From an uncultured archaeon (GTDB lineage: Archaea > EX4484-52 > LFW-46), in assembly GCA_902384675.1 (NCBI GenBank), contig CABMCT010000029.1:1-59771 (forward strand): 59,771 nucleotides of DNA. The letters run 5' to 3'. Below the pieces are notes generated by a model that was not told the DNA's origin, searched no databases, and saw only the letters and a program-made list of their open reading frames with translations. A program made the translations under genes and the position numbers. Below, piece by piece: positions 11,761-39,673 of this stretch (position 1 is its first letter; every line of letters starts with the position of its first letter).

Positions 11761-14478
11761 TTACCACCATTTAAGTGCGGAAAGAAAACCTTTCAGTGCA
11801 GAAAGATAGCCTTTGCGCAGGGCGTAATACCCTCCTGCCAGTATTGCTCCTATTGCGGTTGCTATCACGCCAGGGTTTTGAGCAGCTTTTAAAAGAAGAT
11901 TGCCTGTCGGCATCCCATCTGTGACTTCTATCTTTTTGAGCAAACTGTCCTCCCCGCCTTTTGTCTGCACCACGGCCCGAAGAGTTTTTGTGCCGGAGGA
12001 ATTGAACTTATAGACAAATGTGAAAACCGCGTCTCCGCTGATAAGCGTCTGCTTTCGCCCCACTTCTACATTATCTGCAAATAGGATCAATGATGCCTCG
12101 CCCGGCTTTAGCACCCTTACAGACACTCTTAACGCGACAGGGACATTCACACGCGCACTCTCATTAGGGGAGATATCAAGTATTTTTGCCCCGGCACCGC
12201 TATTGTCAGCAGCCTGCATCGATGCGCTTTCTTTTGTAACTACGTTTATTGATTTGCTGAAGTCCGAGCCGGAATCATTAAACCAGAGGTATACTAAATG
12301 ATTTCCTGCAGCTGAAAGCACCTGCGAATAATTGAAGCACGGCGCAGGTACGGTTACTGCCTCACTGCCCTTTAAAACTGTGTCAAGATATACATCGACT
12401 GTGCTGTTTTTATTGAGTTTTGCGACGCATCCGGATATGGCGAGCACATCTCCCGAATTTATGGAATCCGGGACGGACATATTTGAAAAGTATGCATTCT
12501 TGTTATCGCCGCTTGATGTGAGTGTGTAGCTTCCTCCACCGCCACCTCCTCCACCCCCGCCGCCGGAGCCAGATGAGCCCGTGCTTCCGGAGGGTGTTGA
12601 AACCTGCTGCTGGGCAGGGTCTATGCTAACATTTCCTGCTACGATATTGTCGCCTGGGAAAGAGTCATTTGTAAGGTTGGCGAAAAGTGTGAGGGTATGA
12701 TTTCCGGCTACTGCAGTCCAGTTAAAGCCGACTGTTTTGGTTTCCTGTGCCGAAAGGTTAAAGTATTTTGTTTCTGTGGTTGCATTATCCACCAGGAATA
12801 CTACAGGTACGTTTTCTTCGCTTGTAGATACCTTGTTCTTTAAATTTGTTGAAACCGAAGCGAGAGACCCGGCAGCAGATACATTAAGTGCAATCGATAT
12901 TCCGTTAAGCGAAACATCGTGCAAAGTTCCGTTCTGTGTTGTATTCGTTATATTGGTAGTATTGGAAGCGGAAGTGCTTGCGTTAACTGTTATTGATATT
13001 TCTTTGGAATTCCCGGAGGTATCGTTTGCCCTTGCATATATTGTGTTCAGGCCGGGCACAAGCGTTACCGGCATGCTCCATGAAGTTGTCCCTGAAACGC
13101 TTTGCCAGTCTCCTGTTCCAAGCCTTGCCTGTACCGTATCGAGGCCGGTATTATCCGAAGCGGTTCCGGTGACTGTGATGTTTCCGACAGGAAGCGCCTG
13201 GCCATCTGCCGGGTAGGTGATATTTACAACTGGAGGCGTTGTATCTGCCACGTTCTCCGAAACCCTAAGCGTTGTTGTGGCAGTTTCCTGCGGATTGCTG
13301 ACAGTAAAGCATCTCACATCATCTGCGGTTCCAGAAATCAAAGCAGTGTAATTTCCTGCAACAGCGGGCGTCCAGGTGAAATTGAATGTTGCCGGCGTGG
13401 AATTGTCCGGGTTTGCAGGTAGGCTGACTAAAGGCTGCACCATGACAGTGTCTCCTGTGCTGTTTGTTATCAAATATGTAGCCCGTGTTTTAACAGGCGC
13501 CAGATTATAATTCGGGTCCCAGATATCGTAGCTGTTTGCATAATTGCTGATTTTATTAAAAGTAAATGTTAGCGGTTCGTTTGCTTTTGGGTGCGGCGCA
13601 GAGTAAGATAATCCGTTGATTAATGTGTAGCAGGCATTTTTCGGGGCAGTTGCCCAGACCTTGAATACCTTTAGCTGCGTCTGCGGAATAACCGAATCCT
13701 GAACGCATTTTGCATCAGGAACGCCTGTTGTGACAGAGGCAGTATACGTTCCTTCGGTTGTCGGAGTCCAGATGAAGCGCACATGCTTTGAGCCGCTGTA
13801 CGGAATCAGCATATAAGTAGTATTGGTGTTGACCATATCGCCGTTGCCGTTTTTTATAACCAGAGTAACGCTTGTATTTACAGAATAGTGTGGATCAAGA
13901 AGCGGCGGGGCATATTCAAGAGGCCCGGCAGACTTTATGGCAGCAAAAGTATCTGCATCAAGGGTTGCGTTCATATCTATTACAAGAGGAATGTTCTTGT
14001 AAACATCATTTAAGACAGTGAAATTCATTATTGGCGCTGTGCAGGATTTTTTCTTTGCAAGATAATAAGTGCGCGCAGAAGCAGTTCCTGACCCGCTCCA
14101 GTTGGCCTTTACTTCATAAGGTATGTATCCGTCCTTATAGATATAGACACCGTAGCCAAAAGATGATTGCAACGTCGTGGGGTATGTAATATTCATGTTG
14201 CTTGAACTTCCTGCGGACAGCACCGGAGGATTACTTACGTCGGCGAGGCTTCCTGAAGAAATGTCCAGGCCGGAGCTTACTGTAGAGCAGTTTGCGGAGG
14301 AGCATAAAAATCCTATGGCACTTGCACCTGTAACAGGTATAGCAGTATCATTGACGACGCCTGATGATGATATTTCCCGGTACCTGATATTGGCAGGTAC
14401 AGTCACTGCTGCATGTGCTATTGAAACTGTTACAAAAAACGCTACTATGGCAAACAATACGATATTTTTTGATGACAT
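11761..14478 (-). CDS. Large secreted/surface glycoprotein with Ig/CARDB-like beta repeats, a Gly/Ser linker and a C-terminal membrane anchor
   Basis: Start reassigned to ATG 14478 (GGAGG site, MSSKNIVLFAIVAFF signal peptide). Has DTTPPVVNITYP, many N-X-S/T sequons and a C-terminal TM followed by a basic tail. Confidence 0.8.
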   Translation of the reverse strand: MSSKNIVLFAIVAFFVTVSIAHAAVTVPANIRYREISSSGVVNDTAIPVTGASAIGFLCSSANCSTVSSGLDISSGSLADVSNPPVLSAGSSSNMNITYPTTLQSSFGYGVYIYKDGYIPYEVKANWSGSGTASARTYYLAKKKSCTAPIMNFTVLNDVYKNIPLVIDMNATLDADTFAAIKSAGPLEYAPPLLDPHYSVNTSVTLVIKNGNGDMVNTNTTYMLIPYSGSKHVRFIWTPTTEGTYTASVTTGVPDAKCVQDSVIPQTQLKVFKVWATAPKNACYTLINGLSYSAPHPKANEPLTFTFNKISNYANSYDIWDPNYNLAPVKTRATYLITNSTGDTVMVQPLVSLPANPDNSTPATFNFTWTPAVAGNYTALISGTADDVRCFTVSNPQETATTTLRVSENVADTTPPVVNITYPADGQALPVGNITVTGTASDNTGLDTVQARLGTGDWQSVSGTTSWSMPVTLVPGLNTIYARANDTSGNSKEISITVNASTSASNTTNITNTTQNGTLHDVSLNGISIALNVSAAGSLASVSTNLKNKVSTSEENVPVVFLVDNATTETKYFNLSAQETKTVGFNWTAVAGNHTLTLFANLTNDSFPGDNIVAGNVSIDPAQQQVSTPSGSTGSSGSGGGGGGGGGGGSYTLTSSGDNKNAYFSNMSVPDSINSGDVLAISGCVAKLNKNSTVDVYLDTVLKGSEAVTVPAPCFNYSQVLSAAGNHLVYLWFNDSGSDFSKSINVVTKESASMQAADNSGAGAKILDISPNESARVNVPVALRVSVRVLKPGEASLILFADNVEVGRKQTLISGDAVFTFVYKFNSSGTKTLRAVVQTKGGEDSLLKKIEVTDGMPTGNLLLKAAQNPGVIATAIGAILAGGYYALRKGYLSALKGFLSALKWW

Positions 14479-14479
14479 T

Positions 14480-15784
14480 TTAACCTCCTCCGCTTCCACC
14501 TTCTTCTCCGCCGGATATTCCTCCGCCATCACTTCCCCCGGAAGATGGCGAACCTCCTCCGCTGCTTGAGCCCGAAGAGCTGCTACCACCGCCTCCCACC
14601 GAGCCGCTTCCGGTATACAGTCCCGCGTCTCCGATTATTTTTAGCATGTTATCGGCAGAATTATCTTCAAGGCGCCCCTTTGCAGTATTTATGCCAACCG
14701 CAATATAGTTATCGCCCTTTGATGTGGCGTGGTCTACAGCGACTTTTCCCTGATTTCTTAGAACAAGCGCAGGGGTTGGGGGGGTATAGTCTCCCTGAAT
14801 CTTTTTTACAATGTATACGTTTGAAGCGCTATCCTTTACGGCCTGGGCGTACATCGCTTCTAAGGCATCTGAGAAGTGCATGCTTGATGAAACATTAGCC
14901 TTCGCAGCGGCAGGGGATTTGCCAGAAGTATTAGGGACAATTTTGTAAAGAGCTCCGTAAGATGTTCTTTGGACTTCGGTAATTGTCTGCGTCGGCTCAA
15001 GAAATATGTCTACAGGAAGGTCCTGGAGAGAATATTTGCTGAAATTTTGCGGTACACCGCCCCATGCGTCGCTAAGTAATCCGTTAATTTTTGCGCGGTC
15101 TGTGTAATTGATTTTGTGTATGTGGTTATTGCCGTATATCGTAAGGATGCCGCTGCTTGCAGGGTTGGTTGGCGTTACAGAAGGCGCGTAAGCAGGGGTT
15201 TCAGTCGGAGTGATGACTGGAGTTTCCTGAGGGATTATGGCCGGTGTACTTGTAATATTATTGTCATTCGCCGTATGGTTGTCTCCCTGGCCGTTTACGT
15301 TGTGCCCCGTGCAGCCAGAAATTGTAACAATGGCACCGACTCCGAAAGCAAGCCCAAGTGCTTTTAGAATCCCATACGGAGACACGCTCGCTGCAATATT
15401 ATGTGAAAATGTGGGTCTGCTGGCCCTATCGATTGCTAGTTGTACATCGATATTCTCTGTATGCGTGTCTGGTGTGTCAGCCGATCTTTCATTTACCTGT
15501 GCTACTATTTCCTTAAAGCATAAATCATATTCTGCGTTCAGTTGCTGAATGTATTTCTCAAGTTCTATGCGGCGTTCTTGAGGATTAACACTACTCAATT
15601 CTTCTGCCTTTGTTTTAACCGCATTGAAATAGGTATTATTCAAATCACGGACTGGTCCATAAAAAAAGGAAAGAGATAAGCCATTTGTTGCAGGGTTTTT
15701 TAGCACAGATTTAGAAACTGTTGAGCCTACTTCATTGCATACCTTTGTCCAAATGGTGTCTCCTATTTCATAAAGCGTTCTCAT
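14480..15784 (-). CDS. Membrane-anchored/lipoprotein-like protein with a Pro/Thr linker and Gly/Ser tail, unknown function
   Basis: 434 aa. A hydrophobic helix ending ISGC lies about 140-158 aa in, followed by ETPVITPTETP repeats and a GGS tail. Confidence 0.7.
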   Translation of the reverse strand: MRTLYEIGDTIWTKVCNEVGSTVSKSVLKNPATNGLSLSFFYGPVRDLNNTYFNAVKTKAEELSSVNPQERRIELEKYIQQLNAEYDLCFKEIVAQVNERSADTPDTHTENIDVQLAIDRASRPTFSHNIAASVSPYGILKALGLAFGVGAIVTISGCTGHNVNGQGDNHTANDNNITSTPAIIPQETPVITPTETPAYAPSVTPTNPASSGILTIYGNNHIHKINYTDRAKINGLLSDAWGGVPQNFSKYSLQDLPVDIFLEPTQTITEVQRTSYGALYKIVPNTSGKSPAAAKANVSSSMHFSDALEAMYAQAVKDSASNVYIVKKIQGDYTPPTPALVLRNQGKVAVDHATSKGDNYIAVGINTAKGRLEDNSADNMLKIIGDAGLYTGSGSVGGGGSSSSGSSSGGGSPSSGGSDGGGISGGEEGGSGGG

Positions 15785-17470: not shown

Positions 17471-17520
17471 CGCGAAGCGCTAAAAGCCGAGAGTGAACGC
17501 AAGTGAACGAACGGATTTTG
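17465..17520 (+). repeat. Repeat-family copy between the alg14- and alg13-like genes
   Basis: TTTTAGCGC-GAA-GCGCTAAAA perfect stem, followed by an AAAAGCC...GAACGGATTTT junction. Confidence 0.8.
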
Positions 17521-17540
17521 ATTTTAAGGAGGAGTTACCA

Positions 17541-18020
17541 ATGATTTTTGTTACTGTAGGAACTCATACGCAGGGGTTTGAGAGGCTCATTAAAGCAGTG
17601 GACGAGCTTGTTGGAGGAGGCAAAATAAAGGAAAAAGTAGTGATGCAGATAGGGAACACGAAGTACGAGCCGGAAAACTGCGAATACTTCCGCTTTGAGC
17701 GCTTTAAAAAAATCCTTGAATTGAATAAAAATGCACGAGTAATAATAACGCATGCGGGTGCGGGATGCGTCATAACCGCGCTGCAATTTAGAAAGCCGCT
17801 GGTTATTGTCCCAAGGTATAAAAAGTTCGGCGAGCATGTTAATGATCATCAGTGCGACCTTGCAGCGGCGCTTGAGCGGGAGAAGAAGGCAATCAATGTG
17901 AGCGATATAAGCGGCCTTGAAGCGGCGTTAAAAAACATTGGCAAACTGGCAAAAAAGAGAAAAAATGGCGCATTGGTAAGCAAATTAGCTGCATATTTAA
18001 ATCAACAGGCGGGTCTATGA
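17541..18020 (+). CDS. Alg13/PssE-like glycosyltransferase (GT28 C-terminal domain)
   Basis: [16 protein letters not shown] and IVPR...[14 protein letters not shown] site before ATG 17541. Confidence 0.9.
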
Positions 18021-20118: not shown

Positions 20119-21009
20119 ATGAAAGATGCTACAGTCATAATCCCTACGCGAAACGAGGAAAAAAACATGAACGAGTGCCTCGCAGCATATTCTAATCAGG
20201 ATTACAACAAGAAGAAATTCGGCATCCTTGTGATTGATGACTGTTCCACGGACAGAACGGCCGATGTTGTTAAAAAATACGCCAAAAAAGACGCGGGGTT
20301 TATAGAGTACATAAAAACTCCGTCGCGCCTTGGCCGCGTAAAATCCCTGAATCTTGGAATAGCAAAGTGCGATACTCCAGTCTTTATAGAGATGAACGCG
20401 GATTGCATCCCCGAAAAAAACTGGTTTCGTGTGCTTATGAACGGATTTTCCGACAAAAAAATTGCTGTGGTAAAAACCACAAGCCTCGGCGAGGGAGCAA
20501 GCAGCGCATACCGTACAGACGTAGTGAAAAAGCTTGGCATGTTTGACGAAAGGTATAATGAAATGGGCTCGGGTTTCCGGATGGATACCGACCTGATGTT
20601 CAGTATTCTTGATGCAGGCTATGAAATAAAGCGGATATCAGGAACCGGCTATGAGCACAAGCATCCTGCGCCGGCAACTTTTAAAGGGAAAATAAAGTAT
20701 GCAATATCGCGCGTCAAAGTGCACCGTTTCGATCCGCTTCTTTATAAAAACCACCCCCAAAGAACAAAGGAAATGCTTGACATACGGTGGGGTTTTTTGA
20801 GGAACCCTGCTCTTGATTTTAAGACAGCGACAGGGCTCTGGAGGGGAACAGGAAGTCTTGAGCTGTCAAGCCCCCAGGGAATAAAAATAATAGAAAACAA
20901 AACGCCGCTTCATGGATTAGTCATAGTTATTCTTGGAATCAGTTATGTTTTTGCGGTAAAGCTTGCGCGGCTTTATGGAAGCATCAAGTTTGGGAAGCTT
21001 CTGGTTTGA
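20119..21009 (+). CDS. GT2 glycosyltransferase
   Basis: VIIPTRNEE, VIDDCSTD and MNAD. Confidence 0.88.
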   Translation: MKDATVIIPTRNEEKNMNECLAAYSNQDYNKKKFGILVIDDCSTDRTADVVKKYAKKDAGFIEYIKTPSRLGRVKSLNLGIAKCDTPVFIEMNADCIPEKNWFRVLMNGFSDKKIAVVKTTSLGEGASSAYRTDVVKKLGMFDERYNEMGSGFRMDTDLMFSILDAGYEIKRISGTGYEHKHPAPATFKGKIKYAISRVKVHRFDPLLYKNHPQRTKEMLDIRWGFLRNPALDFKTATGLWRGTGSLELSSPQGIKIIENKTPLHGLVIVILGISYVFAVKLARLYGSIKFGKLLV

Positions 21010-21055: not shown

Positions 21056-21736
21056 GTGATGAAAACAACCCTGGTTCTCCTGACACTAAACGAAATTGAC
21101 GCTCTTAACAAACAGTTTTTAAAAATACCGATAAAGGCCGCTGACGAGGTTATTGCAGTCGACGGCGGCTCCACAGACGGGACAATAGAATTCTTCAAAA
21201 AAAACGGCGTAACGACAATAGTCCAGAAAGAGCGCGGGCGCGGAAGGGCATTTATATACGGCATGGATAATGCAAAAGGCGATTACATCCTGTATTTCAG
21301 CCCTGATGGGAACGAGAATCCTGCAGATATTCCGCGGCTTATAGAAGAAGCGAAAAAGGGACATGATATCATAACCGCTTCAAGGTTTATGGCAAGGGGG
21401 AAAAGCGATGACAGTGACGACCCGATGCTTGTAAGGAATATGGGAAACCGGTTCTTTACTGCATTGATCAATCTTTTCTACAGGTCAAAATACACCGATG
21501 CAATCAACGGCTTTAGAATAGTGAAAAAATCCGCCTTAAAGAACCTGAATCTTGATGCAACCGAGCACGAAATAGAGTTCCAGATGTCCATACGCGCGGC
21601 AAAAAAGAAGCTTACGGTCGCTGAAATTCCAACAATTGAGATGGAGCGAATCGGGGGGGCCCGGAAAGCTAACACATGGAGGATGGGTTGGCGTTTCTCT
21701 GTATTTTTTCTTCGCGAACTCTTTAAAAAATCCTAG
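21056..21736 (+). CDS. GT2 glycosyltransferase, Dol-P-Man synthase-like
   Basis: VDGGSTDGT, FSPDGNENP, ASRF and DAINGFR. Confidence 0.88.
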   Translation: MMKTTLVLLTLNEIDALNKQFLKIPIKAADEVIAVDGGSTDGTIEFFKKNGVTTIVQKERGRGRAFIYGMDNAKGDYILYFSPDGNENPADIPRLIEEAKKGHDIITASRFMARGKSDDSDDPMLVRNMGNRFFTALINLFYRSKYTDAINGFRIVKKSALKNLNLDATEHEIEFQMSIRAAKKKLTVAEIPTIEMERIGGARKANTWRMGWRFSVFFLRELFKKS

Positions 21737-21753: not shown

Positions 21754-23415
21754 ATGCAGGAAGATGTGATTAAAGACAATAAGAAACTTTTTGAAGCAGG
21801 AGTTATTGCCTTATTCATTGTTCTTTTCTTATTCGTAAAGCTCGCCCAGCCATGGCAATATTCATTAGCACACCAATACCCTTCTTTTTATAACGCGAAC
21901 GATAATTTCATAAACGGCTATGTCATTCCGCAGGACATAAAAGAAACAGGAAACTATATGTACGAGCCGTCTTATCTTGTAGGTGGATATAAGAACCTCG
22001 TAGGTTTTTTTCCGCCAATATTTTACCAGCTGACCGCTGAATTTTCAGCAGTAACCGTCCTGCAGACTTATGATGCATCCTACATTCTGGCCATCTTCAT
22101 TTCGATTACCACCGCACTTATAGCTTATTTTATCATACGCAAGTATTCGCCGGAACTGGCTTTGCTGAGCCTGCCGTTCATGCTAGGAGCATTTAATTTT
22201 GATTTCGAAATTGCACGTGCATTCGGTCTGTGGATGTATCTCACAGGAACGCTTTTCTTTGTGTCCATGGTGTGGATTATCGACAGGATTTCATCGAAAT
22301 ATTCTTTCCTGTTTTTCGCAATATTTTTTTCCGGTGCGATACTTGGGCATCCGCCTGAGGCAATTTTCTCAATAGGTTTTCTGGTATTCTATCTGCTTAT
22401 TCGGTACTTAAAAGAGAAAAAGCTACCAAGAGAAACCTTAAAGAACTTGGGTATCGGGATGGCAATCGCGCTCCTTATTTCATCATATTACCTACTTATT
22501 TTTAGATATGCTCTTATGCACGGGGCAACTAACCAGTATAAGCTATTCAGCGTTATGACGGCTCCTGATTTTGCGCCAAATCTCGGAGTGAAACTCTGGG
22601 ATTTTGGTATTATTTTCCCTGTTCTGATAATAGGCCTCTTAATAGCGATTAAAAAATTAGTATTCAGAAAAAAAGAAGAAATTCCATTCATACCCCTACT
22701 TGCCGGAGTTTTTGCCCTTATAGTAGGATACTCCAACTACTTGGGTATGGGAATACGTGCATGGCAGACACGAACCAGCTGGCCGTTCATGCTTGCCATT
22801 TTCTCAGGGATAGTGCTCTTCTACATATGGCAACGCTTTGCAAAAGACAAAAATACAATATATATTCCTGTAATAAGTTTGGCTCTTTTACTCATGTTTG
22901 CAACATTACACGTGGGGCAGCTTCAGGGCATGGGCATCGTAGATAAGCAATCTTGGGGCGCCCTGATGTGGATAAAGAACAATACACCGCAGAATGCAAA
23001 AGTGTATTACTACCCCATGCCACTTGCGACACAGCAATTTGCACTATGGTCGGCAGGCAGGGTGCCATATATTATCGATACTGACGACTATGTTAACGCC
23101 GCGAAGCAAGGTATTGTTAAAGACGATTACAAAGCATACATATTTGCCGCTGATGGCTCCAATTCCAATTTTGCTTACCGCGCGTCATTGACCCAGTATT
23201 ATTACCTTGCAGATAACGCCTCGGTTATGAACGGCTTCCTTAACAAGTCTTCCAGAAACGCCGATTATCACGTGCTCCAGATTGGAGGGCCACTGAACAA
23301 CCCTTATATATCGCAGTATAATCAGGCAATAAGGGCAAGATTATTGAATAGCAGCAGAGACATCAGCGAGGTATTTAATAACGGCGTGATCTCGATATTG
23401 AAAAAGAATGAATAG
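21754..23415 (+). CDS. Polytopic GT-C/STT3-like membrane protein lacking WWDYG (paralog A)
   Basis: Many TM helices, ANDNF in the first loop and a C-terminal soluble domain opening WGALMWIKNNT. Confidence 0.65.
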   Translation: MQEDVIKDNKKLFEAGVIALFIVLFLFVKLAQPWQYSLAHQYPSFYNANDNFINGYVIPQDIKETGNYMYEPSYLVGGYKNLVGFFPPIFYQLTAEFSAVTVLQTYDASYILAIFISITTALIAYFIIRKYSPELALLSLPFMLGAFNFDFEIARAFGLWMYLTGTLFFVSMVWIIDRISSKYSFLFFAIFFSGAILGHPPEAIFSIGFLVFYLLIRYLKEKKLPRETLKNLGIGMAIALLISSYYLLIFRYALMHGATNQYKLFSVMTAPDFAPNLGVKLWDFGIIFPVLIIGLLIAIKKLVFRKKEEIPFIPLLAGVFALIVGYSNYLGMGIRAWQTRTSWPFMLAIFSGIVLFYIWQRFAKDKNTIYIPVISLALLLMFATLHVGQLQGMGIVDKQSWGALMWIKNNTPQNAKVYYYPMPLATQQFALWSAGRVPYIIDTDDYVNAAKQGIVKDDYKAYIFAADGSNSNFAYRASLTQYYYLADNASVMNGFLNKSSRNADYHVLQIGGPLNNPYISQYNQAIRARLLNSSRDISEVFNNGVISILKKNE

Positions 23416-23427
23416 GTGCTTGTTGAT

Positions 23428-23802
23428 ATGGATAATAATGCAGTTAGCTCTAAAATAAAGTCAGACATAAAGACTCTTGGCATAAGCTTTGTAGCCTTAT
23501 TTATTATCCTAAAGCTTGTCTTCTTTAATGAGTCAATTACTAATACGCTTCTTTCAACCGTCGGGCTTTACTGGATATTAATACTGCCGGCATTCGGATT
23601 AACGTATTTAATTGAGGATATCGAGTTTTTGGAACGCCTTGTGATAAGCATACCACTAAGTGCGTCCATTGTCGGAATCTCTTCGTATTATCTTGGTATC
23701 TTGGGTGTCCCTGCGGTCCGCTCGGCATATTATGTACCTGCGCTATTTGTATTGCTTTCTGCCGCGGTAGCCTATTTTAAACTAAAAGGATTCAAAGAAT
23801 AA
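23428..23802 (+). CDS. Small membrane protein (DUF1616-like N-terminal module), partner of paralog A
   Basis: LILPAFGL...FLERLVISIPLS; about four TM segments; AGGTG site. Confidence 0.7.
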   Translation: MDNNAVSSKIKSDIKTLGISFVALFIILKLVFFNESITNTLLSTVGLYWILILPAFGLTYLIEDIEFLERLVISIPLSASIVGISSYYLGILGVPAVRSAYYVPALFVLLSAAVAYFKLKGFKE

Positions 23803-23957
23803 AGATTTTAACTAAGGTTATTTTAAATCCATTCAACCCTCTTCGGCAACAAACTTGTTAAAATTCAGTATCTACGGATTCTTTAAACTGACCGAAGGCA
23901 TGCTTTCGCTGCTAATAATTTCATCAGATGCTCTTATACGTTAATCCTAAGAGAAGA

Positions 23958-24317
23958 TTAAGTATTCACTGTAGGCTTTGAATAAGACAGCCAAATAGAA
24001 ACCGCAATAAACACTGGCGGCAGGATTATTGCAGAATACCTGACATGAAATCCGATAATACCAAGGTAATATGCACTTATTCCGACAAGTGCCCCGCCCA
24101 GAAGAATGCCGATAATTAACCGCTCGAAAAATTCGTTGATGCCAAAAACATCGGCCATGAAAAATCCCGGAAGCACAAACAGCCAGAAAAATGCGGATAC
24201 TGCCAGAGCAGTATTTGAAATGCTTTCGTTTATGAACAATAATTTGAACAGCACTAGAGCTATCAAATACAAATATGCCAGATTTTTGCAGTCCGATAAA
24301 ATCTTATCCGTATTCAT
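23958..24317 (-). CDS. Small membrane protein, paralog of 23428-23802
   Basis: Aligns by eye: KLLFINESISNT, FVLPG, ERLIIGI and GISAYYLGIIG. Confidence 0.72.
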   Translation of the reverse strand: MNTDKILSDCKNLAYLYLIALVLFKLLFINESISNTALAVSAFFWLFVLPGFFMADVFGINEFFERLIIGILLGGALVGISAYYLGIIGFHVRYSAIILPPVFIAVSIWLSYSKPTVNT

Positions 24318-24332
24318 TCACTCACCAGATTA

Positions 24333-24482
24333 TTTCCAATCGCCGAAGGCTATTGGAAAGCTTGAAACTCATTTTGAATATTTTCGCTCCACAATATGTA
24401 AAGCGAAAATTTCGAAAGCTTGAAAATCTGCATGATTGCATAATGATTTTCATGACATGTTTTGCAAGCGAGTTTCATGATT
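24333..24482 (+). repeat. Nested repeat-family copy
   Basis: Outer AAAGCTTGAAACTC (24357-24370)...GAGTTTCATGATT (24470-24482) encloses inner AAAGCTTGAAAATC (24415-24428)...GATTTTCATGA (24445-24455). Confidence 0.88.
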
Positions 24483-26135
24483 CTTTAAAATCGATATGCG
24501 CCCGTTGTTGTAAACTTCTGTCATATTTTTTGAAAGGAAATCCTCGCGTATCGCAAGGTTGTACTGTATCAGTGCCGGGTGGTCGCCAAGGGCAGATACC
24601 GTGAAAATATAATAGCTCATGTTGAAATACCCCGGCTGCTCAATCGGCTGGAGCACTTCCGTCGGATACGTTTCAAAGCCGAACCAGCCTGTGCGGTGCA
24701 GGCCGCCGTTATATTCCGAAGCAAGTTCGTACTTATATTCCTGCTTCAGCTTCTGGTTTTTTATTCCGTCGACGAGGTCATCAAAATTAACAGCGTACGA
24801 CATTCTTTCAGTATGATAGAGGGATTGTTTGGTAAAAAGAAGCGGCGTGTAAAAATAAAATACCTTGTCATTTTGCATTGTGTTATTTCGTATCCATTCG
24901 ATGCCACCCCATGTTCCTTTGTCCATTACTCCCTGCGGCGAAAGCTTTCCAATATGCATGCTGAAGAAAAAGGCAACAAGTAACGCGCTTATCAGGAATA
25001 TATGAGTTGTACTTATGTTGCGTTTTGCCTTCTTTACCAGGAAAAAAGCTCCTAATGCAAAAAGCGGAGAAAGATACAACGGCCACATTGCGCGCAACTG
25101 CCATGCACGCTCGGCGAACCCTATATAATTCGTATAGCCGACAAATAAAAAGAATATTGCAACCAGCATAGGAAACATGCTTTTTCCTTTTAGCTCAAGA
25201 AAATCTGACAGGGAGCTGTCGCTTTTGTTGCGCGAAAGAATGCTTATTGCAAAAAGAGCCATGCCAAGAACAAGAAACGCTATTGTGTAATCGAAATACC
25301 AGATAGATACACCCTTTCCCGGTGCCATGCTGAAATCAGTTGAAACCGTGAATGCCTGCATGTTTTTGTACCTGAAGTAAAGCCTCATTATGTTCAGGTA
25401 ATATGCAGAAAGAACAAACATTATTGCATACGCTCCGGCGATTTTTGACAGGAGCACCTTCTCCACTTTTTTGTCCTGGAAGAACTTCAGTATAAGGTAA
25501 ACTGCGATGAAACCTGTCACAAAAAACATCTGCACTGTATGGGCAAGAGCGCTTCCTGCCAGGAGCAACCCCAAAAGTATTGTCGGATGTTTTATCGTAT
25601 TGATATTACCCAGCACAAATAATGCTCCAAGCGCAAAGAATGTCCCGCTGACAAACCACCATATCCCGAAAGGATAAATAAGATCGAACGAGTAGTTAAA
25701 AACCCCGAGCATAAAAGGCAGGCTTAGTAGCGCAAGATTCTGGCTTTGCCTGCGTATTATCAGGTACATCGCAAGCATTGCAAGAACCGAAAATATAGCA
25801 GTAATGAAATATATTGAATCATATACCGCTATTCCTGTGATAGATGAGAACATTGCGGCGTATATGGGCAACAGCGGCGGCCCGATGTTTATTGATTTTT
25901 CAAACCCGTCGGAAATATATGTCGGAGAGAAAACAGGGGTGCCGGACGCCTTTGTTTCGTCCGTAAGAATAATGCTCTGGAATGCATCGTTTGCAACGTA
26001 AAATTGCGGATAAGTATGCGAAATTCTTCCGTCAAAAGGCTGGACGAGCCGCACGTAAAGAACCATGCAGAAAAAAATCGCAAGGAAAATTTTTTCGAGT
26101 AATTCGCGATTATCCTGATTTAATTCCGGTGCCAT
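24450..26135 (-). CDS. Polytopic GT-C/STT3-like membrane protein lacking WWDYG (paralog B)
   Basis: Shares ANDAF, LALLSLPFMLG, W..IRNNT and QYN.AIR..L with 21754-23415. Confidence 0.65.
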   Translation of the reverse strand: MAPELNQDNRELLEKIFLAIFFCMVLYVRLVQPFDGRISHTYPQFYVANDAFQSIILTDETKASGTPVFSPTYISDGFEKSINIGPPLLPIYAAMFSSITGIAVYDSIYFITAIFSVLAMLAMYLIIRRQSQNLALLSLPFMLGVFNYSFDLIYPFGIWWFVSGTFFALGALFVLGNINTIKHPTILLGLLLAGSALAHTVQMFFVTGFIAVYLILKFFQDKKVEKVLLSKIAGAYAIMFVLSAYYLNIMRLYFRYKNMQAFTVSTDFSMAPGKGVSIWYFDYTIAFLVLGMALFAISILSRNKSDSSLSDFLELKGKSMFPMLVAIFFLFVGYTNYIGFAERAWQLRAMWPLYLSPLFALGAFFLVKKAKRNISTTHIFLISALLVAFFFSMHIGKLSPQGVMDKGTWGGIEWIRNNTMQNDKVFYFYTPLLFTKQSLYHTERMSYAVNFDDLVDGIKNQKLKQEYKYELASEYNGGLHRTGWFGFETYPTEVLQPIEQPGYFNMSYYIFTVSALGDHPALIQYNLAIREDFLSKNMTEVYNNGRISILKNHETRLQNMS

Positions 26136-26281: not shown

Positions 26282-26852
26282 TTAAAATGCCTGTTTTTTT
26301 ACAATAAACCGGTATTCTACTTCTTCAAATACCCCACACAAAAACACCACAGCCTCGAGCACAGGAAAGACGACAGGAGTGCAAAAAAATCAAATATTGT
26401 GCCCAGGAAATATCCTGCATAGTATGCCGGCTTTGACAGGACGGTTTTTTAAGATATTTTTGTGCAAACCATGAAAGCTTCATTTTTTTAATCTTAAGTT
26501 CGAATCCCTGATATCCTCCCTTAAACGATGGATTAAAATAGTACGGAAGGGAAACATCAAAACCCCTTTTATGCTCAGGGTGCGTGAATCCTCTTGAGAA
26601 ATGCGGTACCTTTATTATTATCAGGCCGCCGTCCTGCGAAATCCTATGCATCTCTTTGATGACCATAAACGGATTCTCCAGGTGCTCCAGTACATGGTCT
26701 GCCTCAATCAGCCCGAATTCATTGTCGCTGAACGGATATGGAAATTTGTTCAAATCATGCTTTACATCAGGCTTTGATACAGAGTAGTAGTCGACATTGA
26801 CATAGCCTTCCTTCCTGAATTCCCCGCAGCCAAGATTTAGTTTTTTTGCCAT
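26282..26852 (-). pseudogene. Class I SAM-dependent methyltransferase with two apparent 1-nt deletions in the 3' third
   Basis: LNLGCG...DVKHDL...HVLEHL. The frame becomes Cys-rich after an A6 run; successive shifted frames read LKKTVLSKPAYYAGYFLG...LWCF and FEEVEYRFIVKK. The span of 571 nt equals 3n-2. Confidence 0.6.
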
Positions 26853-26870
26853 AATCCTCAATTCTATCGG

Positions 26871-27812
26871 TTATTTTCTCTTTCCCTTTTGTATCCATTC
26901 AATATATTCCTTTATTCCTGCTTCTATGGTGTATTTTGGCTCATATCCTAAAATGTGCCTTGCTTTTGATATGTCTGCAAGCGTATGGGCGACGTCACCG
27001 CTTTGGGAATTGACGTAGTTCAGATGTGCCTTCTTATCCAGGCATGCCTCTATAATCCTTATAATCTCTGATAAGGATACTCTCTGGCCCGAGCCTATAT
27101 TGAATATCTCTCCGCCAGATTTGCTGTTTGCCGAAAGAATAATTCCACGGACAGCATCTTTAACATAGGTAAAATCCCGTGTCTGCTGCCCGTTTCCATA
27201 AACGTCTATCGGCTCGCTGTTTAATATTTTATTGGCAAACTTGCATATCGCCTCATCAGGCCTTTGCCTCAGCCCGTAGACTGTAAAATATCTCAGGGCT
27301 ACAGTAGGCATGCCGTATGCCCTGTAGAAATTCATGCAATACTCTTCTGCTGCAAGTTTGCTGCATCCGTAAGGAGATATCGGGGCGCATTTTCGTTCCT
27401 CGTTTACCGGCAGCAGGTTTTCAGGCACGTTCCCATAAACAGAGGAGGAGGAGGCATAAACGAATTTCCTGATGTTTGAGGATAAGCATTTTTCCAGCAA
27501 TAAAAACGTGGCTGCCGCGTTCAGCTCAAAGTATTTTTTCGGGTTTTCAATTGAATATCTTACGCCGCCTATGCCCGCCTGGTGATATATTACATCAGCA
27601 TCCTTTATTATGTCCTTGTTTATTTTTCTTACATCCTGCTTTAAGAATTTGAAATTTTTGTATTTCTTTAATTCGGATAAATTCTTCTTCTTTATGCCTA
27701 CATCATAATAATCGTCAAAACAATCAATTCCAATCACCTGTTCGTTGTTTTTCAGCAGCTCCTCTGCCAGGTTGGAACCTATGAAACCGGCGCAGCCCGT
27801 CACGATTATCAT
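26871..27812 (-). CDS. NAD-dependent nucleotide-sugar epimerase (UDP-glucuronate 4-epimerase-like)
   Basis: GCAGFIG, ASSSSVYG, PYGCSK, LRYFTVYG.RQRPD and QTRDFTY. Confidence 0.88.
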   Translation of the reverse strand: MIIVTGCAGFIGSNLAEELLKNNEQVIGIDCFDDYYDVGIKKKNLSELKKYKNFKFLKQDVRKINKDIIKDADVIYHQAGIGGVRYSIENPKKYFELNAAATFLLLEKCLSSNIRKFVYASSSSVYGNVPENLLPVNEERKCAPISPYGCSKLAAEEYCMNFYRAYGMPTVALRYFTVYGLRQRPDEAICKFANKILNSEPIDVYGNGQQTRDFTYVKDAVRGIILSANSKSGGEIFNIGSGQRVSLSEIIRIIEACLDKKAHLNYVNSQSGDVAHTLADISKARHILGYEPKYTIEAGIKEYIEWIQKGKRK

Positions 27813-27865: not shown

Positions 27866-28789
27866 ATGATTTCTGTCATTGTGCCGCTATATAACGAAGA
27901 GGAAAATGCGGAACTTCTTTACAAGGAGCTGGCAGATGTCCTCAAAAAACTTAAAGACGGCTATGAAATCATTTTTATCGACGACGGCAGCAGGGACAGA
28001 ACCTGCGAAATCCTGGAAAAAATCTCCAAATCCGACAAAAAAGCAAAGGTCATCCAGTTCAGGAGAAACTTCGGACAGACAGCGGCGGTTCAGGCAGGAA
28101 TAGACAATGCTTCCGGCGATATAATAATTACAATGGACGGGGATTTGCAGAACGACCCCCAGGATATTCCAAAGCTCCTTGAAAAAATCAACGAAGGATA
28201 TGATATTGTCAGCGGGTGGAGATATAACCGCAATGACTCATTTCAGAAAAAGATTTTCTCCAGGTTCTCCAACCGGCTTGCAAGATACCTTACAGGAATA
28301 GGGCTTCACGATTTCGGGTGCAGCCTCAAAGCCTACAGGAAAGATGTGATAAAGGACATAAGGCTTTACGGGGAAATGCACCGGTATATTCCCGCTGTTG
28401 CTTTTAAAGACGGGGCAAAAATTGCCGAAATAAAAGTAGAGCACCGCAGAAGAAAATTCGGCAAATCAAAATACGGTATGGGCAGGTTGATGAGGGGCTT
28501 TCTGGATTTGCTCTATATCAAATTTTGGATGGACTATTCGGCAAGGCCTCTGCACCTCTTCGGGTTTTTTGGCACGGCCCAGATACTGCTTGGAATCCTG
28601 TTCGCGGCCTATAATCTTGCCAGGTACGGATTACTGCTTCAGGTAGGGCCGCTGCTTCTTTTATCCATATTCCTGGTTTCAAACGGCGTGTTGTTTGTGA
28701 TGTTCGGCTTTATGGGCGAAATCATCGTGCGGACATATTATGCTTCAAAAGGCGAGACATACTATAAGATTAAAAAAGTCGTAAACTAA
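27866..28789 (+). CDS. GT2 polyprenol-phosphate glycosyltransferase (ArnC/GtrB-like) with C-terminal TMs
   Basis: IDDGSRD, RNFGQTAA, MDGDLQNDP, DFGCSLKAYR and EMHRYIP. Confidence 0.9.
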   Translation: MISVIVPLYNEEENAELLYKELADVLKKLKDGYEIIFIDDGSRDRTCEILEKISKSDKKAKVIQFRRNFGQTAAVQAGIDNASGDIIITMDGDLQNDPQDIPKLLEKINEGYDIVSGWRYNRNDSFQKKIFSRFSNRLARYLTGIGLHDFGCSLKAYRKDVIKDIRLYGEMHRYIPAVAFKDGAKIAEIKVEHRRRKFGKSKYGMGRLMRGFLDLLYIKFWMDYSARPLHLFGFFGTAQILLGILFAAYNLARYGLLLQVGPLLLLSIFLVSNGVLFVMFGFMGEIIVRTYYASKGETYYKIKKVVN

Positions 28790-28798
28790 GGTATTCTG

Positions 28799-30658
28799 AT
28801 GTGTGGTATCTGCGGGTTTACTTTCGAGGACAAAACGCTTCTGAAGAACATGTGCAGGCTAATTGCCCACCGCGGGAATGATGCACGCGGGTTCTATTAT
28901 GATAAAAACATAAGCCTGGGGCACCAGAGACTGAGTATAATTGACCTTGAAGGCGGAAAGCAGCCAATATATAACGAGAATAAAGACATTTGCGTTGTTT
29001 ACAATGGCGAAATATACAATTTTGCCGAATTAAAGGAAGAGCTCCAAAATCTGGGGCACAAATTTTATACAAATACGGATACGGAAGTTATAGTTCACGC
29101 ATATGAGGAATGGGGCACTGATTGCGTCAGGAAGTTTAACGGCATGTATGCATTTGCGCTCTGGAATTCAAAGGATAAAGAGCTTTTCCTTGCGCGCGAC
29201 AGGCTCGGGATAAAGCCGCTTTATTACACAATCATAAACGGGAGCCTGGCATTTGCCTCCGAATCAAAAGCTTTGATGATCCTGCCGGGGTTTGACAAGA
29301 CCCTGAACAAAAATGCAATCGATATGTACCTGACATTCAGGGCAGTTCTTGGCCAGGAGTGTATGTTTTCTTCTGTCAAAAAGCTTCTTCCGGGGCATAC
29401 GCTTTTGTGGAAAAGCAAAAAAACCAGGATAGAAAAATACTGGGGTGTGGAGGAAAAATTCCTGGAGCCGACAGAAAAAGAAATTATCCAAAACCTCAGG
29501 AGCCTGCTTGAAGACTCCGTGAAACGGCATATGATTGCCGACGTTCCTGTCGGTGCGTTTTTATCGGGAGGCCTTGATTCTAGTGCGGTCGTTGCCCTGA
29601 TGAGCAAATACGGGACCGTGAAAACGTTTTCCGTCGGTTTTGGAGGCGAATTTGACGAGCTCAAATACGCAAAAACAGTGTCCGAGAAATTCCGGACAGA
29701 CCACCATGAAATATACGTAAAAGAGGATGCTCTTTCGCTTTTGCCAAAAATCGTATGGCATTTTGACGAGCCTGTCGCTGACCCTGCGGCAGTGCCGACA
29801 TATGTTTTGTCAAGGGAAACAAGGAAAAAATGCAAAGTGGTGCTCACAGGCGAAGGAGGGGATGAGATTTTCGCGGGGTATGAGCAGTACAAGTTCATGA
29901 CACTAAAGGAGCGGTTTAAGGGCGCCTCAAAAGCCGCAGGTTCGGTGATTGGTGCGGTTCCACCATCCCTGCTTTCATATGCATTTCCTTATGCGAGCCG
30001 GCTTGGAATGAAGGGAATAAGGAGAGCCAGGGGATTTTTAAGAGAGGATGGGTTCGAGAAAGCGTATATGGAAATAACTTCTGTTTTTAACGAGGATGAT
30101 TTGAATGCAATTTGCGGCAGCAGCGGGTATTCGCTTGAATTTCTTAAATCGGCAATGTCGCGATACAAGCACCCCCTGAACAAGATGCAGCTGTTTGAGC
30201 TTGAAAACATACTCCCTGATAACCTGCTTATGAAGGTTGACCGAATGACCATGGCGCACTCGCTTGAAGCACGCGTCCCGCTTCTTGACCACCGGATAGC
30301 AGAATATTCCTTTTCACTGCATCCATCCATAAGGTTCAGGAACTCGGAGCCAAAGTATCTGTTCAAGAAGTCTGTAAAAGATATCCTTCCAAAAGAAATA
30401 CTAAACAGGCGAAAGCAGCGATTTTTTGTCCCGATAGATGAGTGGCTCCAGAAACGCGAAGCAAAGAATTATATTGAAAATTTCTACTTATCCGGAGATA
30501 CGCACGCGGGCTTGAAAGTGAACCCGAAATACATACATAATATTTTCCAGAATTACGACAATTCAAAGTTGTTCTATGCCCGCCAGCTATGGAGCCTGCT
30601 GAATATGGCGATGTGGTATGAGACATTTGTAGATAAGGATGCGGGAAATGCTTTATAA
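28799..30658 (+). CDS. asnB: Asparagine-synthetase-like glutamine amidotransferase, probably acting on a sugar
   Basis: MCGICG, HRG.D, NGEIYN, LSGGLDSS, LTGEGGDE and DRMTMAHSLEARVP. Confidence 0.92.
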   Translation: MCGICGFTFEDKTLLKNMCRLIAHRGNDARGFYYDKNISLGHQRLSIIDLEGGKQPIYNENKDICVVYNGEIYNFAELKEELQNLGHKFYTNTDTEVIVHAYEEWGTDCVRKFNGMYAFALWNSKDKELFLARDRLGIKPLYYTIINGSLAFASESKALMILPGFDKTLNKNAIDMYLTFRAVLGQECMFSSVKKLLPGHTLLWKSKKTRIEKYWGVEEKFLEPTEKEIIQNLRSLLEDSVKRHMIADVPVGAFLSGGLDSSAVVALMSKYGTVKTFSVGFGGEFDELKYAKTVSEKFRTDHHEIYVKEDALSLLPKIVWHFDEPVADPAAVPTYVLSRETRKKCKVVLTGEGGDEIFAGYEQYKFMTLKERFKGASKAAGSVIGAVPPSLLSYAFPYASRLGMKGIRRARGFLREDGFEKAYMEITSVFNEDDLNAICGSSGYSLEFLKSAMSRYKHPLNKMQLFELENILPDNLLMKVDRMTMAHSLEARVPLLDHRIAEYSFSLHPSIRFRNSEPKYLFKKSVKDILPKEILNRRKQRFFVPIDEWLQKREAKNYIENFYLSGDTHAGLKVNPKYIHNIFQNYDNSKLFYARQLWSLLNMAMWYETFVDKDAGNAL

Positions 30659-33474: not shown

Positions 33475-34610
33475 AAGTCACTTCGCAAGACCAAAAGCAT
33501 CCAGGCAGAAAACTCAAAGTTCTTCATGTCACAAATCACTTCTATCCATGCATCGGGGGAATCGAGACATACATTTTAAACCTGTCAAAAGGCCTGATAA
33601 AGCAGGGGCACACAAGTGATGTCTTATGCCTTAATACGTGCTCGAAAAGCAGGGAAAAGCTGCCAGCATCCGGGAATTACTGCGGGATTAATATTTATCG
33701 CGTTCCATATACGGATTTTAAGTACTACAAAGTCACGGGTATGATAGGGAAATACCTGAAGTCTTATGACATCATACACATACATGGGCTTGGGTTTTTT
33801 GCAGATTATCTTTCGATTACAAAGATGCTGCACAAAAAGCCCATGATTCTTTCGACATACGGCGGTATGTTCCATACGCAGCGCCTGATATCATTGAAGA
33901 AGGCGTACTTCTTTGGCTGGTGCCGCGTTGTGGCAAGAAGCTTTTCCAAAATAATTGCAATCAGCCCGGAAGACGAGAAAGTGGCGCGCCAATTATCGGG
34001 AAACGTCCAGCTTGTTGAGGCAGGCATTGATTATGAGCGGTTTTCATCTGCGAAAAAGAAGCTGGACAAGAACCTGCTTCTTTACGTCGGCCGCATATCC
34101 AGGAACAAGCGGGTTGATAACCTCATCAGGACCGTTTCTTACCTGAAGAAAGACTTAAAAGATATTAAGCTTTATATTATCGGAGAGGATTGGGAAAACC
34201 TCAAAACAGGACTCCAAAAACTTGCCGTAGAGAGAGATGTTGAAAAAAATATTGTATTTACGGGAAAAGTTTCCGACGAAAAACTGCTTGAATATTTGTC
34301 ACGGGCAAACTTTTTTGTCTCTGCATCAGAATACGAAAGCTTTGGGCTGTCTGTTGTGGAGTCGATGGCCGCTGGGTGCATACCGATTCTGAATGATATC
34401 GGGATTTTCAGGAACCTGATTGCTGACGGGAAAGAAGGCTTTATTGTCGATTTTAACAATCCTGAATCTGCGGCAAAGAAAATAAGCGCGATTTTCGGGA
34501 AGAACATCGAGCCCATAAGGAAAAGAAGCAGGCTGTTTTCAAAAAAATACTCGTGGGATAAAAAAGTATTGCTTGTAGAAAAAATCTACAATGACTCGAT
34601 AGGAATATGA
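33471..34610 (+). CDS. GT4 glycosyltransferase
   Basis: FYPCIGGIE, YVGRISRNKR and ESFGLSVVESMA. Confidence 0.9.
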   Translation: MKVTSQDQKHPGRKLKVLHVTNHFYPCIGGIETYILNLSKGLIKQGHTSDVLCLNTCSKSREKLPASGNYCGINIYRVPYTDFKYYKVTGMIGKYLKSYDIIHIHGLGFFADYLSITKMLHKKPMILSTYGGMFHTQRLISLKKAYFFGWCRVVARSFSKIIAISPEDEKVARQLSGNVQLVEAGIDYERFSSAKKKLDKNLLLYVGRISRNKRVDNLIRTVSYLKKDLKDIKLYIIGEDWENLKTGLQKLAVERDVEKNIVFTGKVSDEKLLEYLSRANFFVSASEYESFGLSVVESMAAGCIPILNDIGIFRNLIADGKEGFIVDFNNPESAAKKISAIFGKNIEPIRKRSRLFSKKYSWDKKVLLVEKIYNDSIGI

Positions 34611-39580: not shown

Positions 39581-39614
39581 AGCTTAAATAATTAACTAAG
39601 GCAATATTTCATGA
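39581..39614 (+). repeat. Degenerate repeat-family module
   Basis: AGCTT-AAATA...TATTT-CATGA. Confidence 0.55.
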
Positions 39615-39673
39615 ATGCTAAAGAACATACGGAATGTTCTTTAACCAGAAAACTCAAAAGACTTAGAGGGCTT

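Follow-up and report, generated by a model that had tools for sequence, protein, structure and literature searches.

Two convergent pairs of genes for predicted GT-C glycosyltransferases and small membrane partners in an uncultured archaeon

In a 59,771-nt stretch of DNA from an uncultured archaeon (GenBank assembly GCA_902384675.1, contig CABMCT010000029.1; GTDB lineage Archaea; EX4484-52; LFW-46), referred to here as the window, two gene pairs converge on each other, and each consists of a gene for a large membrane protein predicted to be a GT-C fold glycosyltransferase followed by a gene for a small membrane protein. We analysed the two pairs, their relatives in other archaeal genomes and the glycosylation genes that surround them. 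All coordinates are positions in the window, and the gene names L1, S1, S2 and L2 are those of this analysis. The genome to which the window belongs measures 1.2 Mb and is 89% complete, and its phylum is represented by 42 species genomes of one order, with sizes from 0.5 to 2.2 Mb, which points to an archaeon of the DPANN type.

Two coupled and paralogous gene pairs

The locus comprises the following features:

21754-23415, + strand: L1, 553 amino acids (aa), predicted GT-C fold glycosyltransferase
23416-23802, + strand: S1, 128 aa when counted from GTG 23416, directly abutting the L1 stop codon
23803-23957, no strand: intergenic region of 155 nt between the convergent genes S1 and S2
23958-24317, - strand: S2, 119 aa, paralogue of S1
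24318-24449, - strand: spacer between L2 and S2, 132 nt, structured
24450-26135, - strand: L2, 561 aa, paralogue of L1, predicted GT-C fold glycosyltransferase

The initial annotation of this DNA, made from the sequence alone, had described a large and a small gene converging on a second small and large gene, and all four open reading frames (ORFs) stand exactly where it had placed them. It had also taken both the large and the small members to be paralogous. In agreement with this, L1 and L2 share 32% of their residues from end to end (E 8e-101), and the identity between S1 and S2 is 40% (E 1e-26), similarities that lie far beyond chance. L2 in addition matches the profile of the L family at 1.1e-166. 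The translation start of S1 is more likely ATG 23428, which would give a protein of 124 aa, than GTG 23416, because the sequence AGGTG (23413-17), overlapping the L1 TAG stop codon, is located about 10 nt upstream of that ATG. The start of S2 is arranged like that of S1, with GGTGAGTGAATG comprising the ribosome site and the start of the gene.

To define the extent of the pairing, S genes were sought with a hidden Markov model on the six-frame ORFs of all fetched loci, two of which were cut by contig ends. In line with the co-occurrence that the initial annotation had predicted, the gene directly downstream of L, in the same orientation, was an S gene in all 29 pairs, that is, wherever downstream DNA was present. 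The two genes overlap or stand at most 7 nt apart in 27 of these 29 non-redundant pairs. The L2-S2 gap of 132-133 nt is the sole large one, and all the others overlap or are separated by 14 nt or less. On the minus strand, this spacer (24318-24449) has a fold energy of -38.3 kcal/mol (z = -3.46). It contains pieces of the hairpin-leader repeat of this genome, sharing TCATGAAAATCAT...CAAGCTTT with the repeats at about 16962 and about 30694, and it supplies at its end a fresh GGTG ribosome site for S2.

The L and S proteins also vary together. The matrices of L-L and S-S distances are correlated with r = 0.78, a value reached by none of 2000 Mantel permutations, and the nearest relatives of the two members of a pair coincide: those of L1 and S1 are Lb and Sb of locus L004, and those of L2 and S2 are La and Sa of locus L009, so that the nearest relative of S2 (72% identity) is the partner of the nearest relative of L2. 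Since the nearest neighbours of L and S are the same, the pairs were duplicated as units. In both L004 and L009, the orthologues of L2 are found in tandem with L1-type genes. A convergent layout, in which an L/S pair faces a second small gene, S', recurs in 12 other loci. In the loci examined, the second large gene is of another kind, here called L', which is annotated as DUF6541 or as 'glycosyltransferase family 39 protein' (PF20176, PF13231) and is likewise followed by its own small S' gene.

The large proteins and their relation to AglB

None of L1, S1, S2 and L2 is matched by a Pfam (E<=1) or NCBIfam model. L1 has no match among the sequences of the PDB, and a profile built from 76 L sequences retrieved only noise from them, such as Na/K-ATPase and ryanodine receptor (RyR) entries. 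In an AlphaFold2 model of L1 (predicted local distance difference test score, pLDDT, 69; predicted template modelling score, pTM, 0.69), about 11-12 helices cross the membrane, the first external loop is long (residues 32-88) and a soluble alpha/beta domain begins near residue 395. When this model was compared with the PDB using Foldseek, all 20 matches at E<=1e-3 were GT-C enzymes. The top 13 were STT3/AglB/PglB structures (E 8e-8 to 6e-6, template modelling score 0.40-0.53), followed by DPY19 and AftA, and ArnT, Pmt4, AftD and ALG3 ranked just below the E 1e-3 limit. The initial annotation had made a GT-C fold central to its proposal; the L1 model adopts one, with STT3/AglB/PglB as its best matches, and on the strength of this model we regard L1 and L2 as predicted GT-C(A) fold glycosyltransferases.

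The first external loop carries NANDNF in L1 and VANDAF in L2, which is the acidic AND motif to which the initial annotation had drawn attention. Across 76 family sequences Asp50 and P43 are invariant (76/76), Ala48 is kept in 71/76, and H40, A48, D107, H199, R340, W343, P344 and W401 are conserved in more than 90%. In L1, residues R335, R340, W343 and P344 form the loop RAWQxRxxWP, and the soluble domain starts with W401..W406-I-K-N-N-T..V417.

The window also encodes a canonical oligosaccharyltransferase, which served as the standard of comparison:

56544-58970, - strand: AglB, Pfam STT3 match at E 1.7e-17, WWDYG at residues 549-553

AglB is present in 38 of the 42 genomes of the phylum. A comparison by hhalign of the L family with 25 AglB sequences of this phylum gave a probability of 96.8% (E 2.9e-10); an alignment of 12 L sequences against a single AglB was insignificant, significance being reached only with deeper alignments on both sides. 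In the significant alignment, L1 7-418 is paired with AglB 8-547, and its end falls immediately before S-WWDYG (548-553). Asp50 of L1 is aligned on the Asp of the first loop of AglB (IPDIDI), and W401-x4-W-I-K-N-N-T-x5-V417 on AglB W-x5-F-M-K-N-N-T-x4-V-I-L. The soluble-domain opening that the initial annotation had likened to that of AglB is thus aligned with it just before SWWDYG.

WWDYG is the sequon-reading motif of STT3/AglB. At its position, the sequences are YYYPMP in L1 and FYFYTP in L2, with Pro at the position of the Asp, so that the replacement by YYY or FYF noted initially is confirmed. The family consensus here is F-Y-G-D-x-Y-x-Q (Y 65/76, G 46/76, D 48/76, Q 66/76), and the Asp of the consensus FYGD is in register with the WWD Asp of WWDYG. 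The soluble domain of L1 and L2 is also shorter, about 160 aa as compared with about 280 aa in the AglB of the window. Finally, the STT3 model PF02516 did not match L1 or L2 at E<=1, whereas it matched the AglB of the window.

The nearest named kin of the L family is not STT3 but the DUF6541/GT39 (PMT_2-like) proteins. L and L' align by hhalign over 477 columns (probability 99.5%, E 3.4e-22), with their invariant Asp residues aligned, and L' shows a similar opening of the soluble domain, W..N.P...V. At the DUF6541 (PF20176) cut-off of 29 bits, L1, L2, S1 and S2 had no match and L' proteins passed, with up to 46 bits. The designation of the large proteins as STT3-like transferases without WWDYG therefore stands in part. 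It is a fair label because the homology to AglB takes in the Asp of the first loop, continues to the beginning of the soluble domain and stops where WWDYG would follow; against it are the failure of the STT3 Pfam model and the closer relation to DUF6541/GT39. Taken together, L1 and L2 share with the GT66 enzymes AglB, STT3 and PglB the GT-C(A) fold, the best Foldseek scores, the aligned first-loop Asp and the W..[IM]KNNT....V strand, and differ from them in the lack of WWDYG and of an STT3 Pfam match, in the shorter soluble domain and in the presence of a separate four-helix partner.

In an exhaustive profile search, clustering at 50% identity gave an L family of 456 clusters. The match is at E<1e-30 for 253 of these, and the length is 520-580 aa in nearly all. 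The loci come from Aenigmarchaeota, Woesearchaeota, Nanoarchaeia and metagenome-assembled genomes (MAGs) labelled 'uncultured Methanosarcinales', and one homologue at 40% identity belongs to a MAG labelled Aenigmarchaeota. By its profile, this is an unnamed archaeal family without a Pfam model, found mostly in DPANN archaea. In the phylum of the window, only the window's own genus carries it, in 2 of 42 genomes, and its distribution is therefore patchy. The 'Methanosarcinales' labels look doubtful and were rejected as a taxonomic guide. The five MAGs with this title whose size was determined (from loci L012-L031) measure 0.9-1.4 Mb, like DPANN archaea.

Two distant GT-C-like membrane proteins were also found in the window's own genome, at C66:7161-8630 (+, 489 aa) and C32:6134-7492 (+, 452 aa), and match the L profile at 6e-17 and 7e-12, respectively. 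As S1 and S2 are the only S genes of this genome, these two proteins are without an S-like partner.

The small protein and its fused relatives

The AlphaFold2 model of S1 (pLDDT 93.3, pTM 0.81) is a four-helix bundle with helices at residues 7-35, 41-65, 71-95 and 100-125. Basic residues are located at the C-terminus and acidic ones in the short loops, and the conserved positions are P58, the [DE]-F-x-E-R motif (E73, R74) and Y91. Foldseek returned no match for S1 at E<1, and the 17 matches listed included no EmrE or small multidrug resistance (SMR) protein. A profile of S had no significant match among PDB sequences, including none to a dolichol-phosphate mannose synthase (DPMS). The possibility that S is an internal duplicate of L or L' was tried and ruled out (hhalign probabilities of 5% and 0.6%).

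Relatives of S were found instead at the N-termini of longer proteins. For nine of 39 S proteins (E<1), the DUF6541 profile of 646 positions gives a match that falls on positions 3-67 in one constant register, with best E values of 3.2e-5, 0.0046 and 0.018 and a top score of 22.8 bits against the cut-off of 29. L-type and L'-type proteins match the same profile from about position 95 to 540. Full-length DUF6541 proteins thus carry an S-like segment fused N-terminally, and at our locus its equivalent is a separate downstream gene. The DUF6541 family occurs in the control genomes of Methanosarcina acetivorans and Corynebacterium glutamicum. No DUF6541 protein over the cut-off was found in the window's genome or phylum, so that the argument from fusion rests on the register within the Pfam profile and on a second family, F. 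This family was built from a 697-aa GT-C protein of a woesearchaeote (locus L042), which starts with an S-like region containing EDFLER (residues 15-89, hmmsearch domain E 3.2e-5), and comprises 447 matches of about 680 aa. In hhalign comparisons, the S family aligned with the first 125 residues of the F family (probability 81.9%, E 1.1e-5), and the L family with the F-family body (probability 98.5%, E 2.4e-15), L 50-297 being paired with F 146-395. Four F-family loci contained no significant separate S gene and kept a DPMS-like GT2 gene within about 1 kb in each case. These comparisons suggest that the counterpart of S in single-chain GT-C proteins is the N-terminal membrane module, which there forms one chain with the catalytic body.

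A further group of relatives is provided by DUF1616 (PF07760). Thirteen of 39 S proteins match positions 4-109 of this profile below its cut-off of 31.6 bits, the best at E 5e-4; S1 and S2 themselves did not match it even at E<=1. Conversely, a search of the window's phylum with the S profile retrieved genuine DUF1616 proteins (507 and 631 aa) through their N-termini; such proteins pass the cut-off with 44 and 36 bits. The N-terminal four-helix region of DUF1616 proteins resembles S, and they differ from it in continuing into large extracellular domains and in adjoining an exosortase/archaeosortase gene, S being the module alone. We observed such DUF1616 loci at L073 (147-1670 and 2862-3809), L074 (907-2802), L075 and L076. 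Their products, which measure up to 507 and 631 aa, have an S-like four-helix N-terminus followed by large extracellular parts, in one case with a Wzt_C-like glycan-binding domain. An exosortase/archaeosortase-type gene adjoins the DUF1616 genes in L073, L075 and L076, that of L073 matching PF09721. A literature search returned no mention of DUF6541, and DUF1616 was mentioned in one paper, only as an N-glycosylated Haloferax protein.

Glycosylation genes around the pairs and the proposed pathway

The L/S pairs are embedded in a large glycosylation cluster, whose members of interest here are:

17493-18020: Alg13-type gene for a GT28 C-terminal domain; related clusters contain corresponding Alg13 and Alg14 genes
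20119-21009, + strand: GT2, 296 aa, with a C-terminal hydrophobic tail, Pfam Glycos_transf_2 at E 6.8e-26, generic GT2 matches in the PDB, an ordinary GT-A enzyme
21056-21736, + strand: GT2, 226 aa, of the polyprenyl-phosphate sugar synthase type, best PDB match 5mlz at E 1.8e-10
26325-26861, - strand: S-adenosylmethionine (SAM) methyltransferase, 178 aa, Pfam Methyltransf_11, a conserved neighbour of L/S pairs
26871-27812, - strand: NAD-dependent sugar epimerase/dehydratase, 313 aa, Pfam Epimerase and GDP_Man_Dehyd at E 1e-57 to 1e-59
27866-28789, + strand: GT2, 307 aa, of the ArnC/GtrB/DPMS type, with a C-terminal part that reads as hydrophobic and full-length PDB matches

The 226-aa GT2 matches in the PDB first the dolichol monophosphate mannose synthase of Pyrococcus furiosus (5mlz) and then GtrB and ArnC. 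It is shorter than the dolichol-phosphate mannose (Dol-P-Man) synthase of 374 aa, with which it aligns over the catalytic part only, and is apparently without a transmembrane part. The 307-aa GT2 matches ArnC (1.7e-52), GtrB (sll0501; 7.5e-37) and Dol-P-Man synthase (2.2e-25) over its full length. From these similarities, we propose the 226-aa enzyme as the maker of a dolichol-phosphate (Dol-P) sugar donor for L1 and regard the 307-aa enzyme as a candidate donor supplier for L2. The association is not restricted to the window, since in most of 23 genome loci a DPMS-like GT2 of 223-240 aa is encoded no more than 6 kb from L/S, abutting L in some of them, and in a sister genome one L/S pair is flanked by two such genes. 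The lipid-linked donors that the initial annotation had presumed from the GT-C class are made plausible by these adjacent genes for Dol-P-sugar-synthase-like GT2 enzymes.

Taken as a whole, the cluster contains, besides the Alg13-type gene, genes for sugar dehydratases and epimerases, for three GT2 and two GT4 glycosyltransferases and for a B12-radical SAM protein, together with the small methyltransferase gene close to the pairs, two asparagine synthase genes, an aminotransferase gene and AglB. An alg14-like gene lies just upstream of 17493-18020 according to the first reading of the sequence, and in L002 and L003 the gene after the L/S pair encodes a 182-aa homologue of the methyltransferase. 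The two asparagine synthases are paralogues of the glutamine-hydrolysing type (28799-30658 and 39611-41581, both +) next to a B12-radical SAM gene and an ATP-grasp gene, and their presence suggests amidated or otherwise modified sugars. At 34607-36559 (+, 650 aa), a GDP-mannose-4,6-dehydratase-like gene has a LAGLIDADG match, and a related cluster (L004) contains an intein-bearing gene of the epimerase/dehydratase type (676 aa). Proteins with Ig-like domains flank the cluster at 11761-14589 (-, 942 aa, Glucodextran_B/Big_7) and 44348-46663 (-, 771 aa, DUF2341/Big_5), and are candidate glycoprotein acceptors; a Glucodextran_B/Big_7 protein also adjoins the related cluster of L004. Elsewhere in the window, the coding sequence of a P-type cation ATPase is broken into two ORFs at 4334-5521 and 5554-6876 (+, 395 and 440 aa), which lie in different frames 33 nt apart, the first with the E1-E2_ATPase and N-terminal domains and the second with the hydrolase and C-terminal domains. 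The break reflects either a frameshift, a pseudogene or a fault in the assembly.

The explanation that we favour, at a probability of roughly 0.6, is that L1 and L2 act as Dol-P-sugar-dependent GT-C transferases at the outer face of the membrane, each as a two-subunit enzyme with its own S and with a neighbouring GT2 as donor supply. L and S are probably one split enzyme that decorates cell-surface glycans; we read the pair in this way because an S-like module is fused onto the enzyme in related families. The same fusions lend weight to the two-component system suggested in the initial annotation, since an S-like module forms the N-terminus of GT-C proteins. In the proposed pathway, the DPMS/ArnC-like GT2 enzymes (226 aa and 307 aa) would load a sugar on dolichol phosphate at the cytoplasmic face, the lipid-linked sugar would arrive at the outer face of the membrane and L would transfer it to an extracellular acceptor, with Asp50 as the catalytic residue and R335/R340 as likely phosphate ligands. 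The acceptor would most likely be an already exported N-glycan or surface glycan, as with Haloferax AglS, and the two co-duplicated pairs may correspond to two donor or linkage specificities. The fold, the homology, the strict coupling and co-evolution of the L and S genes, the fused relatives and the neighbouring GT2 genes are results of this analysis; the identity of the donor, the acceptor, the catalytic roles of single residues and the contact between L and S are inferred, as are the non-sequon acceptors and the two specificities of the initial annotation.

The logic of this pathway has a precedent in Haloferax, in which AglD, AglR and AglS add the final mannose to the N-glycan outside the cell (PMC3871713). 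In Haloferax volcanii, these are a Dol-P-mannose synthase, a flippase factor and an external Dol-P-Man mannosyltransferase. There, a GT2 charges dolichol phosphate and a multi-span membrane transferase adds the sugar outside the cell once AglB has acted (PMC3871713), and the pathway proposed here would follow the same logic, likewise alongside AglB. The two systems differ in that AglR is a large Wzx-like protein and not a four-helix protein of about 120 aa, and no obligate small partner has been described for AglS.

Several observations weigh against the split-enzyme explanation. The external loops of the L1 model are poorly modelled and its overall confidence is medium (pLDDT 69). The homology of S to the fused modules is moderate, with sub-threshold Pfam matches and an hhalign probability of 82%. 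L precedes S in the pairs, while in the fusions the S-like part precedes the body, and the pairs thus did not arise by simple gene fission. Lastly, S-like modules head the DUF1616 surface proteins, which have no transferase part, so that its occurrence is not confined to GT-C enzymes.

The main rival explanation gives S another role. S could be a small flippase, an analogue of GtrA, ArnE/F or Rv3789, that carries the Dol-P-sugar made by the GT2 to the GT-C enzyme and is not a subunit of the latter. Bacterial Gtr and Arn systems encode together a polyprenyl-phosphate sugar synthase, a GT-C enzyme and a small four-helix membrane protein (PMC11127046), and the triad of GT2, small membrane protein and GT-C, a hallmark of such systems (PMC11127046), is conserved here. 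With its four helices and about 110-130 aa, S has the size and topology of the GtrA/SMR flippases. Encoded with GT2 and GT-C enzymes, it has their genetic context as well, and by size and position it is the sole candidate for this role in the module. Co-duplication with L would also fit a donor-specific flippase. As in GtrA/GtrB/Gtr*, ArnC/ArnE-F/ArnT and the Citrobacter GT136 system, a synthase of the GtrB/ArnC class is encoded with a GT-C transferase. By sequence and fold searches, however, S is not a member of the GtrA, SMR or MATE proteins and is homologous instead to a module fused to transferases. Neither the GtrA (PF04138) nor the SMR Pfam model was matched among the top families at E<=1 for 39 S proteins, and the Foldseek search likewise gave no significant match. 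Moreover, the S-like module is fused to GT-C bodies and heads transferase-free DUF1616 proteins, and the near-universal overlap of start and stop codons suggests subunits in 1:1 stoichiometry. We consider this explanation unlikely as a replacement for the subunit role, although the two roles could coexist.

A broader idea takes in both roles and all three protein architectures. The S-type module would be a unit, not recognised before, for handling dolichol-phosphate glycans. At the present locus it would physically couple the short Dol-P-sugar synthase, apparently without a membrane anchor of its own, to the GT-C enzyme and would receive or flip the donor, with synthesis, translocation and transfer combined in one channelled complex. 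Such a unit would occur free, as S, fused to GT-C bodies, as in DUF6541 and the F family of about 680 aa, and at the head of DUF1616 surface proteins. We consider this idea quite unlikely.

It is very unlikely that L1 and L2 are alternative oligosaccharyltransferases, which would transfer a glycan en bloc from dolichol pyrophosphate to sites other than N-x-S/T, to O-sites or to lipids. Their best structural matches are indeed STT3/AglB/PglB, the profile homology to AglB reaches the first part of the soluble domain, and F-Y-G-D, with its Asp in register with that of WWDYG, is retained in most of the family. Against this, WWDYG is missing, Pro takes the place of the Asp in both L1 and L2, the STT3 Pfam model failed and the soluble domain has only about 160 aa. 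In addition, the closest named relatives are PMT_2/GT39-like, and the genes that flank each pair encode GT2 enzymes like the synthases of Dol-P-monosaccharides. That S anchors the short GT2 in the membrane as DPM2/DPM3 do for eukaryotic DPM1, with its linkage to L being only operonic, is highly improbable: the 226-aa GT2, aligned only with the catalytic part of the 374-aa synthase, would approach that length with the about 120 aa of S, and the synthase 5mm1 ranks fourth in the Foldseek search with S at an insignificant E of 3.3, but S always abuts L while the GT2 varies in position and orientation and can be several kb away, the S-like module is fused to GT-C bodies and not to GT2, and a PDB search with the S profile brings up no DPMS.

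N-glycans, O-mannose, cell-wall arabinan and lipid A modifications are all made by GT-C enzymes, whose partner subunits and donor delivery are poorly understood. What is new here is an unnamed, AglB-related GT-C family with a strictly conserved, co-evolving and detached four-helix partner. Its fusion relatives connect S with N-terminal regions of DUF6541 and DUF1616 that have lacked an explanation, and thereby provide a hypothesis for these two families. As an AglB relative in which the sequon-reading WWDYG has been lost, the L family may help to trace how oligosaccharyltransferases are related to other GT-C enzymes. The surfaces of DPANN archaea mediate attachment to their hosts, and the finding bears on the diversification of surface glycans in these small-genome organisms, with which the presence of two pairs in one cluster would fit.

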